Below, piece after piece: positions 1,275 to 21,500 of a stretch of 50,816 nucleotides of DNA. The number at the start of each line of letters is the position of its first letter. Position 1 is the first letter of the stretch. This DNA is from Candidatus Firestoneibacteriota bacterium (lineage in GTDB: Bacteria > Oederibacteriota > D2-FULL-39-29 > CAIOVX01), in contig CAIWWK010000098.1 of the NCBI GenBank assembly GCA_903916325.1, positions 1-50,816 of the forward strand, written 5' to 3'. Under the pieces are notes generated by a model that was not told the origin of the DNA, ran no database searches, and was given only the letters and a program-made list of their open reading frames with translations. Position numbers and translations under genes: made by a program.

Positions 1275-2137
1275 AGCCGCCTGAGATAATCCCGCAGTTT
1301 CCTCCCGACTTCTTTGTCCCGCAGGGCATATTCAATTGAGGCCTTCATGTAGCCGAGCTTGTCGCCTGTATCATACCTTTTGCCTTCAAGCTTGACCGCG
1401 TAAACAGGTTTTTCGCGGCAGACTGCCTTAATAGCGTCTGTGAGTTGTATCTCGCCGTTCTTACCGCTCTTGACCGTGCCGAGAGCGGATAGGACATCAG
1501 GGGTCAGGATGTATCTGCCGATTATTCCGAGGTTAGATGGAGCTTCTCTGCGCGAGGGTTTTTCCACGAGGTCTTCTACCCTGAAAACGTTCCCGCCCAG
1601 GCTTTTCCCTTTGATGATGCCATAGTTTGAAACCTGATCGCCCGGCACCTCAACCACCCCGAAAACAACACCCGGGAATTCGGAGTATACCTTCTTGAGT
1701 TGTTCAATGCCGCTGGACTTTACGTTGTAGATGAGATCGTCCGCCAGAAAGACCGCGAAGGGTTCGCTGCCGATAGCCGACCTTGCGCAGTAAACAGCGT
1801 GCCCCAGGCCCAGGGGTTGCTTCTGTCTGACATAAAATATGTCCACCATTTTGGCCACCTGCTCGACTGTGTCAAGCAGTTTTTTATATCCACGCTTCTT
1901 CAGGTAGTACTCAAGCTCAAACGATTTGTCAAAATGGTTCTCAATTGCCTGTTTTCCCCTGCCGGTAACAAGCACTATGTCCTCAATGCCGGCGTCAACA
2001 GCTTCTTCAATTATATATTGTATGGCCGGTTTGTCAAAAATAGGAAGCATCTCTTTTGGCTGGGCTTTCGTCGCGGGCAAGAACCTGGTTCCAAGCCCCG
2101 CCGTAGGTATGACCGCTTTTTTTATTACGAATCTCAC
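1271..2137 (-). CDS. galU: UTP--glucose-1-phosphate uridylyltransferase
   Basis: KAVIPTAGLGTRFLPATKAQPKEMLP, RQKQPLGLGHA, VEKP and GEIQLTDAI motifs. Confidence 0.95.
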   Translation of the reverse strand: MRFVIKKAVIPTAGLGTRFLPATKAQPKEMLPIFDKPAIQYIIEEAVDAGIEDIVLVTGRGKQAIENHFDKSFELEYYLKKRGYKKLLDTVEQVAKMVDIFYVRQKQPLGLGHAVYCARSAIGSEPFAVFLADDLIYNVKSSGIEQLKKVYSEFPGVVFGVVEVPGDQVSNYGIIKGKSLGGNVFRVEDLVEKPSRREAPSNLGIIGRYILTPDVLSALGTVKSGKNGEIQLTDAIKAVCREKPVYAVKLEGKRYDTGDKLGYMKASIEYALRDKEVGRKLRDYLRRL

Positions 2138-2581
2138 TTACTTGCCTCCATTGTCATGCTTAATTATATCCTTGTCTTTCTTGATCTTGTCCAATATGCC
2201 GTTTACGAATTTGCTTGATTCCTTGCCGCTGTAATCCTTGGCTATCTCAATAGCTTCGTTGATAGTCACGGCTACAGGGATCTCGTCACGGAACACAAGT
2301 TCATAAACCGCGGACCTTATGATGTTTCTGTCAACGCTCGCTATCCTGGAAAAATCCCAGTTCTTGAGCCTTTCTTTGATGAGCGCGTCTATCTTTTCAA
2401 GGTTTTCCAGCGTGCCTTTCGCAAGCTGGTAGGCAAAATCTTTTATTTCAGGGTTCTCATCCTGATTCTCGAGGAAATCCTTCCTGCAGTCCTCCAAAGT
2501 TAAAGGCTTCTCGTCCTTTCCCAGATCAATCTGGAAGAGTATCTGCAAGGCAAGTTCTCTTCCTCTGCGCCGGTCGCCCAT
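2138..2581 (-). CDS. nusB: Transcription antitermination factor NusB
   Basis: RRRGRELALQILFQ, DRNIIR, VTINEAIEIAK, FVNGILD; usual position downstream of ribH. Confidence 0.95.
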   Translation of the reverse strand: MGDRRRGRELALQILFQIDLGKDEKPLTLEDCRKDFLENQDENPEIKDFAYQLAKGTLENLEKIDALIKERLKNWDFSRIASVDRNIIRSAVYELVFRDEIPVAVTINEAIEIAKDYSGKESSKFVNGILDKIKKDKDIIKHDNGGK

Positions 2582-2612
2582 ATTTTTCCTTATACGAAAA
2601 TCGCGTCTTTTA

Positions 2613-2842
2613 AAAGTTTATAAGGTTCTTAAGGTTTATGAGCCTCCCCGGCCTAAAGTCCGGGGTGTCTCTGCTGTATTGTAAACATTATTCGTGCCAA
2701 ATTCATCCCCGCCATGAATGGCGGGGTGTTCTTTGGCACAAGCGCATAAAGTTTGTAAGGTAAGGTCAAAACCAAAACTGAGCACTATACACCTTACAAA
2801 CCTTACAAACTTTTTTTCTTTTACCTTACAAACTTTTATAAA
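2613..2842. repeat. 9-mer (AAGGTTTAT-like) inverted array element, copy 1, interrupted by the mini-IS
   Basis: aaagtttat-aaggttctt-aaggttt|at-aaagtttgt-aaggt, then inverted accttacaaaccttacaaact. 2818-2842 is identical to 4764-4788 (25 bp). Confidence 0.8.
2638..2745 (-). mobile_element. Non-autonomous IS200/IS605-family mini-element (PATE-like, 108 bp)
   Basis: Two subterminal GC hairpins (2707-2726 and 2646-2665). On the minus strand, TTAT lies just outside the left end with guide AACA, and the right end finishes in TCAT with guide GACA. Excision restores the flanking 9-mer repeat register. Confidence 0.8.
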
Positions 2843-3290
2843 GATTTACCATCTCTATCGCCGACATCGCGGCTTCCGCGCCCTTATTCCCTGATTTTGT
2901 TCCCGCGCGTTCAATTGCCTGCTCAAGGTTCTCCGTGGTAAGCACTCCAAAAACCACAGGTATTCCGCTCTCCATCGCCGCTGCTGCCACGCCTTTTGAA
3001 ACTTCGGCGGCAATGTATTCATTGTGGGTGGTGCTTCCCTTGATAATAGCCCCAAGACAGATGACTGCGTCGTACTTTTTGCTCTTCGCTAGCTTGCTTG
3101 CAACGTAGGGTATCTCAAAAGCGCCCGGGACCCAATAGATGCCTATATCCTTATCGTCGCCGTCGTGCCTTTTTATGGCGTCAACCGCTCCTTCAAGGAG
3201 TTTTCCCGTAATAAACTCGTTGAACCTGCTGACTACTATACCAAATTTGCAACCTTTTGCAATCAATTTCCCTTCATATACCTTTGCCAT
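2826..3290 (-). CDS. ribH: 6,7-dimethyl-8-ribityllumazine synthase
   Basis: [31 protein letters not shown] and [14 protein letters not shown] motifs. Confidence 0.97.
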
Positions 3291-3363
3291 ATTTCCTCCT
3301 TTAAAAGGTGATTAAAATGATTTGTAAAAAGCGATTACGCAGATTAAATAAGGCAGTTTTTGC

Positions 3364-3444
3364 GCGTCCGAGCATCCGCGCATCTGAGCATCCAAATGTT
3401 CTACGCCTTTAGGCCTCCAACCATCTAACCTTCCAACCCTCCAT
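3364..3444. repeat. Two degenerate 8-mer tandem arrays in the ribBA-ribH spacer
   Basis: gcgtccga-gcatccgc-gcatctga-gcatccaa (3364-3395) and gcctccaa-ccatctaa-ccttccaa-ccctccat (3413-3444). Confidence 0.65.
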
Positions 3445-4685: not shown

Positions 4686-4788
4686 AGAGTTTGTAAGGTT
4701 TATAAGGTAAATACGAACCCTGCTTAACAGACTTTATATACCTTATAAACCTTATGAACTTTGCTTTTACCTTACAAACTTTTATAAA
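4686..4788. repeat. 9-mer inverted array element, copy 2
   Basis: Arm agtttgtaaggtttataaggta (4688-4709) pairs 20/22 with taccttataaaccttatgaact (4739-4760). It is followed by the 25-bp block shared with copy 1. Confidence 0.8.
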
Positions 4789-17622: not shown

Positions 17623-18537
17623 CTATTTTGAATCGAACATAAACGAAACCGAGAAAGTATGCGTGGTTCCGAGGTCTCCGAAGGGCACATAGGCGTAGTC
17701 TACGCTGATGTTTCCGATTACCAAACCTGCTCCCGCGGTCAGTCCAACCACATCGCTGTTCTTTAATGTGTATCCAACTCTTAATGCTCCGGACATGGAA
17801 CTGTCCAGCCTGAGTTTGTATTCCGCTCCCACAGCTGCGTACAGGCTTGAATCTGAAGGCGCTACTGCATCTACCGCCAACAGCAAGTCTTTCATTACAT
17901 TCCCAGATATACCCGCTTTTACAGATAGCGGCACTGTGAATGCGTCCGAGACAAACTTTCCTCCGAATCCCAGGTTGTAAATACCGATTGCTCCTGTTGC
18001 CTGAATATCTCCAAGTTTTAGCGGCTGCATAACTCCCGCGTCAATACAAAACGCGCTGGCCGTAGACACGATGCTCAACGATGCGTACTTTACCGTTACT
18101 CCCAGACTTAAATCATTCAGTTTAGCAGCATAGCTTGCCTCTATCACAAGATCCGCCGGGTTGAAGGTTCCTGTGGTGAGTCCCGTCGTGTCGGTCTGCG
18201 GGATGCTCCCGTAGTTCAAGTACTTCACCCCAATACCTACCCTGTCATTTCCCATCGGCATCGCAACCGAGACCCATTCGTAGCTCGTATCTCCAAACCA
18301 GATGGAGTGCATGAAGGTTGCTGTGGGTTTCGTCAGGGTGTTTAATCCTGCCGGATTCCAAAACACAGCCGTTGAATCATCAGCTATTGAAGTAAACGCT
18401 TCTCCCATTCCTTGCGCTCTCGCTCCCGCAGGCAGGTTCAATACTGCAGCTCCCGTCGTTCCGTTGTCGCTACTACTGAAGGCCAGCGCTGCAGTTGCCA
18501 TCAATGTTCCGGCTACGATAATAATTAGTTTTTTCAT
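17623..18537 (-). CDS. PorV/PorQ (UPF0164)-family outer-membrane beta-barrel protein
   Basis: Signal peptide; GARAQGMGEAF...ADDSTAVFWNPAGL (FadL/PorV-type N-terminus); LRVGY and VDYAYVPFGDLGTTHTFS barrel strands. Confidence 0.85.
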   Translation of the reverse strand: MKKLIIIVAGTLMATAALAFSSSDNGTTGAAVLNLPAGARAQGMGEAFTSIADDSTAVFWNPAGLNTLTKPTATFMHSIWFGDTSYEWVSVAMPMGNDRVGIGVKYLNYGSIPQTDTTGLTTGTFNPADLVIEASYAAKLNDLSLGVTVKYASLSIVSTASAFCIDAGVMQPLKLGDIQATGAIGIYNLGFGGKFVSDAFTVPLSVKAGISGNVMKDLLLAVDAVAPSDSSLYAAVGAEYKLRLDSSMSGALRVGYTLKNSDVVGLTAGAGLVIGNISVDYAYVPFGDLGTTHTFSVSFMFDSK

Positions 18538-21500
18538 CTCTGCACCGCCAGTTTAAACATCCGCTGCGTCCCGCCGCCTTTTATCAACACCACATACACT
18601 CCGCTTGCCACCTTCTGACCGGAATTATTAGTTCCGTCCCAGGTAGTTATGCCGCTTCCGGCTACAACATTAATCGACTTTACCTTGATTCCCGTTATCG
18701 TATACATAGATATCGTGCAATCGCTTATCAGGTTCGCAAATGTAAAGACCCCGTTATTGGGGTTATACGGATTCGGGTAAAGATTGACATTCTGAAGGTT
18801 TGCAGATGCCTTCATCATCAGGATTGCAAAGGTCGTAAAGTGCCGAAGCGTTGCCTCCACCCTTCTTTCCGCAGGGTAAACCGTGGAATGCAATATTACC
18901 CACCGGTTGTTGATTGTGTCATAATACCCTATCTGGAAGCCGGTCTCCTCATACGCCGCGGCTTCCGCGGCCGTATAATACAGATTGATGGTGATATCCT
19001 GCTGCGGAGTGAATCCCACCGGGCCTGTAATCTCTACTCCCACAACACAGGGGGTAAGCCCATCCCTGTCAGGCGCAGGAATAGACGCCGTCGGCTTAAT
19101 GGTCAAGGTTACTGTTCCCGTAAAAGTTCCCGCAGGCACCTCCACGTCTATCTGCCCGTGACCTAAATCCGCCGCCTGGACGGTTACGGTGGTGGTAGAG
19201 CTCTGGGAAACTGTAACCGTCGTTGCGGAGCTGGTCACTACAAACTGCAGGCCGCTTGAGGCGTTTGTTCCTCCCGCAGCTGTTACAAGCAAATCATAAG
19301 TTCCCGCGGCTATGCCTGTGGGAATGACCACATTGTTTATCGCGGTATCGGCAGTTACGCTAAAGGAGGATATTCCCGCGCCGCCAAGAGTTATTGCAGT
19401 TACGGTATTACTGTTGATTCCTCCAAAGAAACCGGAGCCGGTCACATTCAGGGTCACTATGGTAAGGTTGGAGCTTGTGGTTAAGCTTAGGCTGCTGACC
19501 GTGGGAGCCGGCGTTGTGACGGTGAATCTGTCTGAGGCTGATGTTATGCTGATTCCGCCAAGCGCTGTGACCGTAATATCGTAAACTCCAACTGCTTTGC
19601 CTAACGGTATTACCACTCCCGTTATCGTGCTGTCGTTTATTGCGGGGCCTGAGGGAATAACCTGGCTTCCAAGTTTGACTGAGGAAACTGTATTGCTGTT
19701 CACTCCTCCGAAGAATCCGCTGCCGGTTATACTGATAGTTGTTGCTCCAAGATTGGAGCCCGTGTTTACGCTTAAATTGCTGATGACCGGTACAGGCGAA
19801 ATGACTGTTATGGCCGTTGTGGCCGCAGCGCTCTCGTTGCCTATCGCGTCAAGCGCAGTCACGCTGAAGTTGTTTACCCCGAGCACAAGATTAACAGTCT
19901 TCTGCCAGGCGGTTGAAGAAACTATGCTCACGCCTGTCGTGCTGCCGTTAACTTTCATTGAGGCAGCGTCAGTTGCTTTTGTTCCGCTGAGCAACTGTGT
20001 AGTTATACTTGTCGGTGAAGTTACTGCGCTTATAATCGGTACTGACGGCGGTATCGTATCTAACAAGATTGCGGTTGTTGCAGTCGTGCTTGAGTTTCCT
20101 GCCGCGTCAAGCGCCGTTACGCTGAAGCTATTATTCCCTTCTGACAAGTTGACTGACGCCTGCCAGGTCGTTGACGACAGGATACTTACTCCGGTCGTTC
20201 CGCCATTAACTTTGATGACCGCCGCATCCGTCACCTTCGTTCCGGTTAGCATCTGTGTAGTTACATTTGTAGGCGATGTAACCGCATTGATTACCGGAAC
20301 CGCAGGAGGTATGGTATCCAGCGTAATTGCCGTTGTTGCCGCTGTGCTTGAGTTTCCGACAGCGTCAAGCGCTGTCACGCTGAAGTTATTGACTCCCTCG
20401 TTCAGATTAACTGCGGCCTGCCAGTTCGTGCTTGAGAGTATGCTTACTCCGGTTGTGCCGCCGTTAACTTTGATGACCGCCGCATCCGTCACCTTCGTTC
20501 CGGTTAGCACCTGCGTAGTCACATTTGTCGGTGAGGTAACCGCATTGATGACAAGTACTGCGGGAGGTATCGTGTCAAGCGTGATTGCCGTTGTTGCAGC
20601 CGTACTTTCGTTACCTACAGCGTCAACCGCTGTTACGCTGAAGTTATTTACTCCCTCGTTCAGGTTAACTGCTGCCTGCCAGGTCGTTGACGACAGGATG
20701 CTAACTCCGGTTGTTCCGCCGTTAACTTTGATGACCGCCGCATCCGTCACCTTGGTTCCGGTTAACATTTGGGTAGTCACATTTGTCGGCGATGTCACCG
20801 CGTTGATGGCAGGTACCGCAGGCGGTATCGTATCTAACAAGATTGCGGTTGTCGCTGCAGTGCTTGAATTTCCAACCGCGTCAACTGCCGTCACGCTGAA
20901 GCTGTTTGCTCCCTCGTTCAGGTTGACAGACGCCTGCCAGGTTGTTGACGACAGGATGCTTACTCCCGTCGTTCCGCCGTTAACTTTGATAACCGCTGCG
21001 TCTGATGCCTTTGTTCCTGTGAGAAGTTGTGAAGTCACATTTGTAGGAGATGTCACCGCGTTGATTACCGGTACCGCAGGCGGTATCGTATCCAGCGTGA
21101 TGGCCGTTGTAGTTGCTGCGCTCTCATCGCCGACCGCGTCAAGCGCCGTCACGCTGAAGCTGTTGTTCCCTTCTGTCAAATTGACTGACACCTGCCAGGT
21201 TGTTGACGAGAGTATGCTGACTCCCGTCGCGCTCCCGTTTACTTTTATTGCATTTGCGATTGTCGCTTTCGTTCCCGTCAGGAGCTGGGTAGTTATATTC
21301 GTGGGAGAGGTCACCGCGCTAATGGTTGGCGCCGCCACAGTTGTGGTTACTGTGAATCTGTCGTTAGATGAGGTGGCGCTTATTCCCCCTGACGTCGTTA
21401 CCGTAATATCGTATGTTCCTATTGTTAATCCCGCAGGGATGATCACACCGGTTATCGCGCTGTCATTTGAAGCTGTGTATGCCGTAAGGGCAGTTGTCCC

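Follow-up and report, generated by a model that had tools for sequence, protein, structure and literature searches.

The 50,816-nucleotide stretch analysed here (the window; contig CAIWWK010000098.1 of assembly GCA_903916325.1, from an uncultured Candidatus Firestoneibacteriota bacterium of lake water) carries the housekeeping genes ribH and nusB in one orientation on its minus strand, and in the spacer between them a gene-less element of 108 bp, the top strand of which is likewise the window's minus strand, such that the element lies in sense with both genes. Our reading, held with high though not complete confidence, is that this element is a non-autonomous derivative of the IS200 group of the insertion sequence (IS) family IS200/IS605, of the kind termed palindrome-associated transposable element (PATE) or miniature inverted-repeat transposable element (MITE), seated in a TTAT of the ribH-nusB spacer, an interpretation which a first-pass annotation made from the letters had offered and which the data below support. 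The window's own genome (G000) is a 2.24-Mb metagenome-assembled genome (MAG) of 295 contigs, 87.7% complete; it was compared with two genomes of the same genus, G001 (98% complete and more distant) and G002 (87% complete). The locus is composed as follows.

2826..3290, minus strand, ribH (6,7-dimethyl-8-ribityllumazine synthase; PF00885 DMRL_synthase, 199.5 bits), upstream of the element
2746..2749, minus strand, TTAT, the target and putative left cleavage tetranucleotide, in the flank outside the element
2638..2745, minus strand as top strand, the 108-bp non-autonomous element, subtype A; letters read, further copies found, exact stretch absent in G002
2694..2739, minus strand, two-tier hairpin of the left end (DNA fold; helices 1 and 2 of alignment A1)
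2727..2730, minus strand, AACA, candidate left guide (AAnA), 15 nt past the TTAT cut and abutting the 5' side of the inner hairpin
2707..2726, minus strand, inner left stem CCCCGCCA/TGGCGGGG with loop ttca (DNA fold)
2640..2671, minus strand, right-end hairpin GAG-aca-CCCCGG ... CCGGGG-agg-CTC (DNA fold; helix 3 of A1)
2666..2669 or 2668..2671, minus strand, GACA or GAGA, candidate right guides within the right hairpin
2638..2641, minus strand, TCAT, putative right cleavage tetranucleotide and the final four bases of the element
2613..2637, minus strand, 9-bp tandem units (ATAAACCTT AAGAACCTT ATAAACTTT) on the 3' side of the element
2138..2581, minus strand, nusB (PF01029 NusB, 137.6 bits), downstream of the element

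Along the minus strand the locus reads ...acaaacTTTAT, then the element itself, GCGCTTGTGCCAAAG-AACA-CCCCGCCAttcaTGGCGGGG-ATGAA-TTTGGCAC ... GCAGA-GACA-CCCCGGactttaggCCGGGG-AGGC-TCAT, and then aaaccttaag..., the element thus running from GCGCTTG to GGCTCAT over 108 nt (2745 down to 2638). The coordinates, the four tetranucleotides TTAT, AACA, GACA and TCAT and the two neighbouring genes given by the first-pass annotation are all correct on this strand, as is its statement that the element has no open reading frame (ORF) inside, in so far as none of at least 50 aa lies wholly within it; a 58-aa plus-strand frame (2718-2894) overlaps the left end. The left end consists of two nested stems, GTGCCAAA/TTTGGCAC outside and CCCCGCCA/TGGCGGGG inside, with GAACA and ATGAA as internal loops, and the foot of the inner hairpin stands 19 nt from the first base of the element, the distance that had been claimed between left cut and hairpin. 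At the right end GACA directly precedes the hairpin CCCCGG-actttagg-CCGGGG, which in the DNA fold is extended by GAG/CTC to within 2 nt of the element end. Both hairpins read CCCC..GGGG on one strand and are separated by a linker of about 20 nt, so that the element has subterminal hairpins at both ends on one strand in place of terminal inverted repeats, as is characteristic of the IS200/IS605 family. The outer stem and the GAG/CTC extension were absent from the earlier description.

The structure is both stable and conserved. Folded as single-stranded DNA the top strand reaches -29.5 kcal/mol against a mean of -13.1 for shuffled sequences (z = -6.7, with 0 of 200 shuffles as stable), and the bottom strand -25.8 kcal/mol (z = -5.3). 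An alignment of 20 copies drawn from all subtypes of the family described below yields a consensus structure of three helices (the outer and inner stems of the left end and the right hairpin) with 22 pairs in total, in which 97.5% of cells are paired and 11 of the 22 pairs show compensatory changes on both sides. Taken helix by helix in A1, helices 1 and 2 are 98.1% and 97.5% paired, with 3 and 5 pairs altered on both sides, and helix 3, the right hairpin, is 96.7% paired, again with 3 such pairs. The covariation score was matched by none of 500 shuffles, and slid controls were only 31-39% paired. In one copy (L075) the right hairpin is completely paired, GAGCCACCCC/GGGGTGGCTC.

Two kinds of structural variant were observed in the left hairpin. 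Optional hairpin modules of 15, 30 or 45 nt follow GGGGATG (G000:C31:1151-1292, C145:2727-2884 and C105:4522-4691, as well as L073, L074 and L083 from G001/G002), and are shared by subtypes A and B, a distribution which points to recombination between subtypes or to a smaller nested insert. In three other copies, L080 (G002:C11) and the metagenomic L195 and L208, one internal loop has been rewritten to match the opposite side, giving a perfect palindrome in which the guide or the ATGAA loop is lost; these are probably dead copies produced by hairpin-templated repair.

The element belongs to a dispersed family. A BLAST search with the 108 bp returned 12 matches in its own genome at E < 1e-3, and a profile of subtype B returned 20 matches at E <= 1e-8 on 19 loci, several of the copies in this genome sitting at contig ends. 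A strict regular expression for the left end finds only 9 copies, and profiles were used instead. Distinct full-length copies number 16 in G000 and 73 when the fetched loci of G001 and G002 and 54 metagenome loci are included; the latter come from a pattern scan of JGI metagenome contigs, nearly all of the loci being family copies and about 40 of the 54 being subtype C copies that are identical in sequence and located at different sites. Four subtypes, A, B, C and E, of 108-116 bp share one common layout, three of them (A, B and C) being present in the window's own genome and subtype E in five genomes of a sister family in the same order. Following TTAT, subtype A reads GCGCTTGTGCC...GGCTCAT, subtype B TTCGTTTATGCCGAAGAAAA-CCCCGCC...GCAGTATTTTAT and subtype C CTTTCAGATGCCGGAGAAAA-CCTCACCC...GCAGAGTTTCAT.

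The boundaries of these copies are sharply defined, and further copies with the same boundaries were what the first-pass annotation had anticipated. When the own-genome, G001/G002 and metagenome loci are pooled and identical flanks collapsed, the left flank is TTAT in 54 of the 57 resolved distinct cases, the remainder being two CTAT and one CTGT; three rows that are cut by locus ends or unresolved stand outside this count. For comparison, TTAT makes up 0.58% of the tetranucleotides of the genome. Of 60 distinct right ends, 46 finish in TCAT and 11, all of subtype B, in TTAT, with one CTAT, one other (L084) and one cut by a contig end. The family thus shows insertion 3' of a specific tetranucleotide that is kept on the left flank, and a conserved putative cleavage tetranucleotide forming the last bases of the right end (57 of 60), both features of the IS200/IS605 family. 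At C175 a subtype C copy starts immediately past the terminal TTTTAT of a subtype B copy. Relative to flanking long ORFs, where both point one way, the top strand is in sense in 24 cases and in antisense in 8. A lagging-strand bias is known for the IS200/IS605 family, and insertion into the template of the lagging strand would give a bias of this direction, a fit that is only indirect.

Two shorter forms were noted alongside the full-length copies. In a 54-bp micro-derivative (G000:C115:13847-13900) the initial 26 nt of subtype A run into a portion of the 45-nt module, to which the final right-end bases are attached; TTAT precedes this form as well, and TCAT closes it. A shorter related repeat (..ATGCCGGAC-gga-GTCCGGCATGAAC..CTTACAGAACAAGAC-GCACGAAGTGC..), lying between arms of 9-mer arrays at G000:C115:7308-7570, at C180:4434-4764 and upstream of the C31 copy, resembles a left end without the inner hairpin fused to a different right end.

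Evidence for insertion also comes from the orthologous locus. A query spanning ribH, spacer and nusB matches G002:C49 over positions 1-543 and 653-1153, which occupy adjacent coordinates in G002, and the pairwise alignment is interrupted by a single gap of 108 columns, shows no duplicated flank letters and differs in one base (A/G) at the joint: G002 reads ...acaaactttGTaaacctt..., and the window minus the element would read ...acaaactttATaaacctt.... Apart from the insertion and this one base the aligned spacer (window 2582-2825 against G002:C49, L024:1925-2085) is 100% identical, while the flanking genes of the two genomes are only 88-90% identical. The ribH-nusB spacer of G001 also lacks the element. 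The predicted empty allele therefore exists in G002, exactly 108 bp shorter and equal, but for that joint base, to the joined flanks. Because the element is absent at the site in both G002 and G001, the insertion is specific to the lineage of the window's genome. Elsewhere the same two genomes do hold family members: G001 copies at C27 and C87 are 100% and 99% identical to the element, each lying after TTAT and ending in TCAT, and the subtype A copy of C31 is common to G000 and G002 at the same site. The public sequencing runs listed as containing this DNA are 10 DNA runs from 4 studies, with no RNA run among them. Among contigs of four such runs, which break in repeats and in which joints with sides of fewer than 30 letters probably derive from other 9-mer arrays, one (run X9, side of 31 letters) contains the empty joint of G002 type.

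The flanks of the element are part of a repeat array. Positions 2613-2637 and 2746-2812 together form an inverted 9-mer array with the element inserted in one arm, and the array is uninterrupted at this site in G002, which bears out the earlier argument that deletion of the element restores a 9-bp register. The units belong to a genome-wide family NN[AG]AAC[CGT]TT (for example ATAAACCTT and ACAAACTTT), of which arrays of at least three units number 141 in the genome and 0 in the shuffled genome. Special targeting of such arrays was considered and rejected: an array is present within 45 nt of 27 of the 73 copies, but also of 27% of all TTAT sites outside long ORFs, so that no special targeting need be invoked.

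Where, then, are the elements that encode a transposase? A Candidatus Firestonebacteria MAG of the same order (G010:C161, contig JAZDIO010000161.1) carries an IS200 tnpA (NF033573, 139 bits) whose left flank reads TTTAT followed by AAAAACGGCCAGAAAA-CCCCAGGC..GCCTGGGG-GTGAATGGCTG (in short form ..GGCCAGAAAA-CCCCAGGC..GCCTGGGG-GTGAATGG) and whose right flank reads GAAG-CTCCGGCC..GGCCGGAG-AGTTCGTTCAC (in short form ending ..TTCAC). The ATG of this gene (L044 328-365) is out of frame with the remainder, the stop-to-stop frame being 127 aa, and the copy may be frameshifted or misassembled. The same end design occurs in another genome of the phylum (G018:C16), where the element ends ...CTTCAT, and in multi-copy tnpA elements of other phyla (Nitrospirota and deltaproteobacterial MAGs). 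In multi-copy MAGs the similarity between copies begins straight after TTTAT (6/6, 6/6, 3/3 and 3/3 copies) and stops at TTCAT, a T following. When the 80 best loci around relatives of the G010 TnpA in species genomes were scanned with the mini-element profile, 26 gave a match; all 32 matches (E 1.5e-4 to 0.9) lie on the tnpA strand, immediately upstream or downstream of tnpA. The individual E-values are weak, and the link to autonomous ends rests on the position and strand of the matches and on the shared motifs; the mini-elements accordingly carry the ends of this IS200 group, homologous to those of elements encoding a Y1 HUH TnpA. IS200 elements in G004, G014 and G027 were rejected as relatives, their ends being of other types. 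The expectation of the first-pass annotation that a tnpA element with the same ends would be found is thus borne out for the design, in G010, in G018 and in other phyla, and failed for the window's own genome and its genus mates.

On this evidence we propose the following course of events. Of an ancestral IS200-type element only the two structured ends would remain, joined by the short linker. A Y1 HUH TnpA made elsewhere would bind both subterminal hairpins on the top strand (the minus strand of the window) and cleave on the 3' side both of the TTAT in the flank and of the TCAT at the end, each site being selected through base pairing with the 4-nt guide that immediately precedes the corresponding hairpin. 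A single-stranded circle would be freed and the donor resealed, and the circle would then be inserted, without duplication, on the 3' side of a further TTAT of single-stranded DNA. In the lineage of the window's genome one such event would have placed the element in a TTAT of the 9-bp array of the ribH-nusB spacer. What the sequences show are the family membership of the ends, the boundaries of the copies, the preference for TTAT, the empty site without duplication, and the conservation of structure with compensatory changes; the cleavage chemistry, the part played by the guides, mobilisation in trans and the origin of the TnpA are inferences.

The guide component of this scheme derives from IS608, for which PMC3201880 places the left cut 3' of TTAC, with the hairpin foot 19 nt further on, and the right cut site, TCAA, 10 nt beyond the hairpin; both sites are read by 4-nt guides on the 5' side of the hairpins (AAAG on the left), and the donor is resealed with DNA neither gained nor lost. 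In the present family the tetranucleotide 15-16 nt past the cut, where the guide would lie, is AAAA, AACA or AATA in every resolved left end with TTAT, and copy C84 has AGTA together with a CTAT flank. In IS608 guide pairing couples positions 1-2, 2-1 and 4-4, and the change in C84 is the one that this scheme predicts. A comparable shift is seen in one Nitrospirota MAG, where, at one and the same 12-nt spacing, five IS copies with AGTT have CTAA and those with AAAA have TTAT. At the right end AAAA accompanies TTAT (subtype B) and GAnA accompanies TCAT (subtypes A, C and E), although the same letters can be read as a normal lengthening of the hairpin; the window offers two candidates, GACA and, 2 nt upstream of it, GAGA. 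The earlier proposal of AACA and GACA as guides agrees with the letters and with the left-end fit, and loses force as regards GACA, which is not unique, GAGA being its equal and hairpin pairing sufficing to explain the letters. A guide function for the tetranucleotides at both ends is consistent with the sequences but not proven. The start pattern used for guide extraction had, in addition, numerous matches to short seeds of the genome that are unrelated to the family, and these were disregarded.

Several observations weigh against this account as a whole and have to be set beside the evidence in its favour. No IS200-type TnpA was found in G000, G001 or G002, and the G010 TnpA as query against all 11 genomes of the order recovered G010 itself only; none of the 54 metagenome loci with the left-end pattern of the family has a TnpA match within 1.5 kb, no TnpB (PF07282) was found in the window's own genome, and among the autonomous relatives found there is no tnpA element with ends identical to those of subtypes A, B or C. 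The absence of TnpA is weak evidence, given that the MAGs are incomplete and that short multi-copy IS are easily lost or often left unbinned, and the lack of a cognate TnpA in the same cell concerns present activity rather than descent. The matches of the profile to autonomous ends are, as stated, individually weak. The empty site of G002 reads TTGT rather than TTAT and is itself no TTAT target, and the exact excision joint, TTAT joined to AAACC, was not found in the contigs of four runs, contigs being prone to drop rare variants. The guide rule has its exceptions: copy L183 has a CTAT flank with unchanged AAAA, L075 and C20 have GCCA before TCAT, and a Nitrospirota subfamily with guide TGAA fits at 13-nt spacing only. 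Finally, the guide follows the cut at 15-16 nt in the mini-elements, against 12 nt in the autonomous relatives.

Comparison with known systems places the family more closely. The PATEs of Haloquadratum are reportedly derived from IS200/IS605-family elements. Like PATEs and MITEs in general, the present elements are gene-less, about 100 bp long, bounded by left and right subterminal hairpins of IS200/IS605 type, and present in many copies per genome next to a conserved motif and without target duplication; they differ in their host, Candidatus Firestonebacteria, in their TTAT target, in a two-tiered left hairpin with its optional modules, and in having no omega-RNA, no TnpB and no cognate TnpA found in the genus. 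PATE-like gene-less relatives are also described in Geobacillus stearothermophilus by PMC10055086, which further reports covariation of adjacent motifs with guides and tolerance of flexible spacing. With IS608 of Helicobacter pylori the element shares a putative left cut placed 3' of a tetranucleotide in the flank, at 19 nt from the foot of the hairpin, a candidate 4-nt guide 5' of each hairpin with letters that fit the 1-2, 2-1, 4-4 pairing, a right cut site inside the element and the absence of gain or loss of DNA. In contrast IS608 carries tnpA and tnpB, combines TTAC/TCAA with AAAG/GAAT where the element combines TTAT/TCAT with AACA and GACA/GAGA, and has its right cut 10 nt from the hairpin as opposed to 4 nt from the core right stem here (2 nt in subtypes B and C). 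The tnpA-only IS200 elements described above (left ends TTTAT followed by ..CCAGAAAA-CCCC..GGGG-ATGAATGG) agree in end design, in the motifs of both ends, in the TTAT target and in the T(T)CAT terminus, and differ in carrying tnpA (about 375 bp of coding sequence), in their other hairpin sequences and in the 12-nt instead of 15-16-nt spacing.

Among rival explanations the strongest, unlikely as we judge it, is that the element is no true IS200 derivative at all but a repeat of the repetitive extragenic palindrome (REP) or REPIN type, spread by the genome's own Y1 enzymes, which resemble REP-associated tyrosine transposases (RAYTs), domesticated relatives of the IS200 TnpA. The resemblance is real in that REP/REPIN systems likewise comprise short intergenic hairpin repeats tied to Y1 HUH enzymes, and the Y1 HUH genes found in G000 (3), G001 (1) and G002 (3), all of 226-232 aa, are RAYT-like only, the best NCBIfam match of their products being the REP-associated tyrosine transposase (NF047646) at 72 bits against a cut-off of 80. 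In the window's genome these genes are the following.

G000:C216:2217-2897, plus strand, RAYT-like Y1 gene
G000:C254, frame 14-712 of the reverse strand, RAYT-like Y1 gene
G000:C72, minus strand, match 18249-18575, RAYT-like Y1 gene

Moreover, identical copies in two species suggest recent activity, yet the IS200 TnpA was not found in the genus. Against this, the RAYT-like genes are flanked by another motif, AAAGGGGACAG (22 occurrences against 1.1 expected), and not by the hairpins of the element. A REPIN is a symmetric doublet built from a single REP, and RAYT genes have REPs at their flanks, whereas the element is asymmetric, with unlike left and right ends in direct orientation, and no arrangement of its repeats as symmetric inverted doublets around a RAYT gene was seen; its ends match those of tnpA-bearing IS200 elements in motifs, position and strand. 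The RAYT-like genes with their AAAGGGGACAG-type palindromes were noted as a separate REP-like system. A related and equally improbable proposition keeps the IS200 ancestry and has an orphan family still moving in a genus without an IS200 transposase, with the RAYT-like Y1 enzymes as its mobilisers. Copies of the family are identical across two species whose ribH and nusB are only 81-83% identical, and the roughly 40 subtype C copies without sequence differences occupy distinct sites. Were this proposition true, RAYT-like enzymes, which are thought to serve their own REP motif alone, would mobilise this family as well.

Still less likely is that the element is a carrier of small RNA, either a PATE encoding an omega-RNA for a TnpB or IscB nuclease or a member of a small-RNA gene family. 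PATEs of the IS200/IS605 family often carry omega-RNAs, according to PMC10055086, and the right end of subtype B resembles a hairpin followed by a T-run; however, the window's own genome yielded no TnpB domain (PF07282), no Rfam family was matched, only some 20 nt lie between the end structures, and the autonomous relatives found are tnpA-only. That the ribH-nusB operon has in these hairpins a conserved cis-regulatory RNA (an attenuator, terminator or processing site), as their stability, sense orientation and operon-spacer location might suggest, is next to impossible and as an origin of the sequence refuted, since the orthologous spacer is without the element in both same-genus genomes, the outcome that also disposes of the objection which the first-pass annotation had raised against itself, and since the element occurs at dozens of unrelated loci, the sense strand has no terminator-like site, and an Rfam scan (window 2000-3400, E <= 1) gave only a chance let-7 match (E = 0.44) outside the element.

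If the element is, as we hold, a non-autonomous IS200-group derivative, then it is of a known kind, to which this family, with its host and its variants, adds new members; no literature search aimed at repeats of Firestonebacteria was made, and we do not claim that the family is unpublished. Within a candidate phylum that has no cultured members it offers a clean example, with well-defined boundaries, of mini-transposons of the single-strand 'peel and paste' type, and the family accounts for some of the repeat-rich operon spacers of these MAGs and for some of their contig breaks. Guides, spacing and hairpin modules vary naturally, a variation with which the choice of cut sites by the IS200 TnpA could be probed. 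The biology of ribH and nusB themselves is probably unaffected.

Other repeats of these genomes deserve brief mention. The xseA-xseB spacer (G000:C156:30600-30850) contains a different repeat type, with AAGCACCAAAT-like units and GC hairpins, in which the mini-element profile found no match. Further 9-bp arrays lie at about 4735-4788 of the window and at G000:C153:7154-7323 and C156:17056-17237; such arrays often form inverted pairs around a short spacer, giving long AT-rich hairpins in gene spacers, and the orthologous ribH-nusB spacer of G001 shows the same array design with units of AACGTT type.

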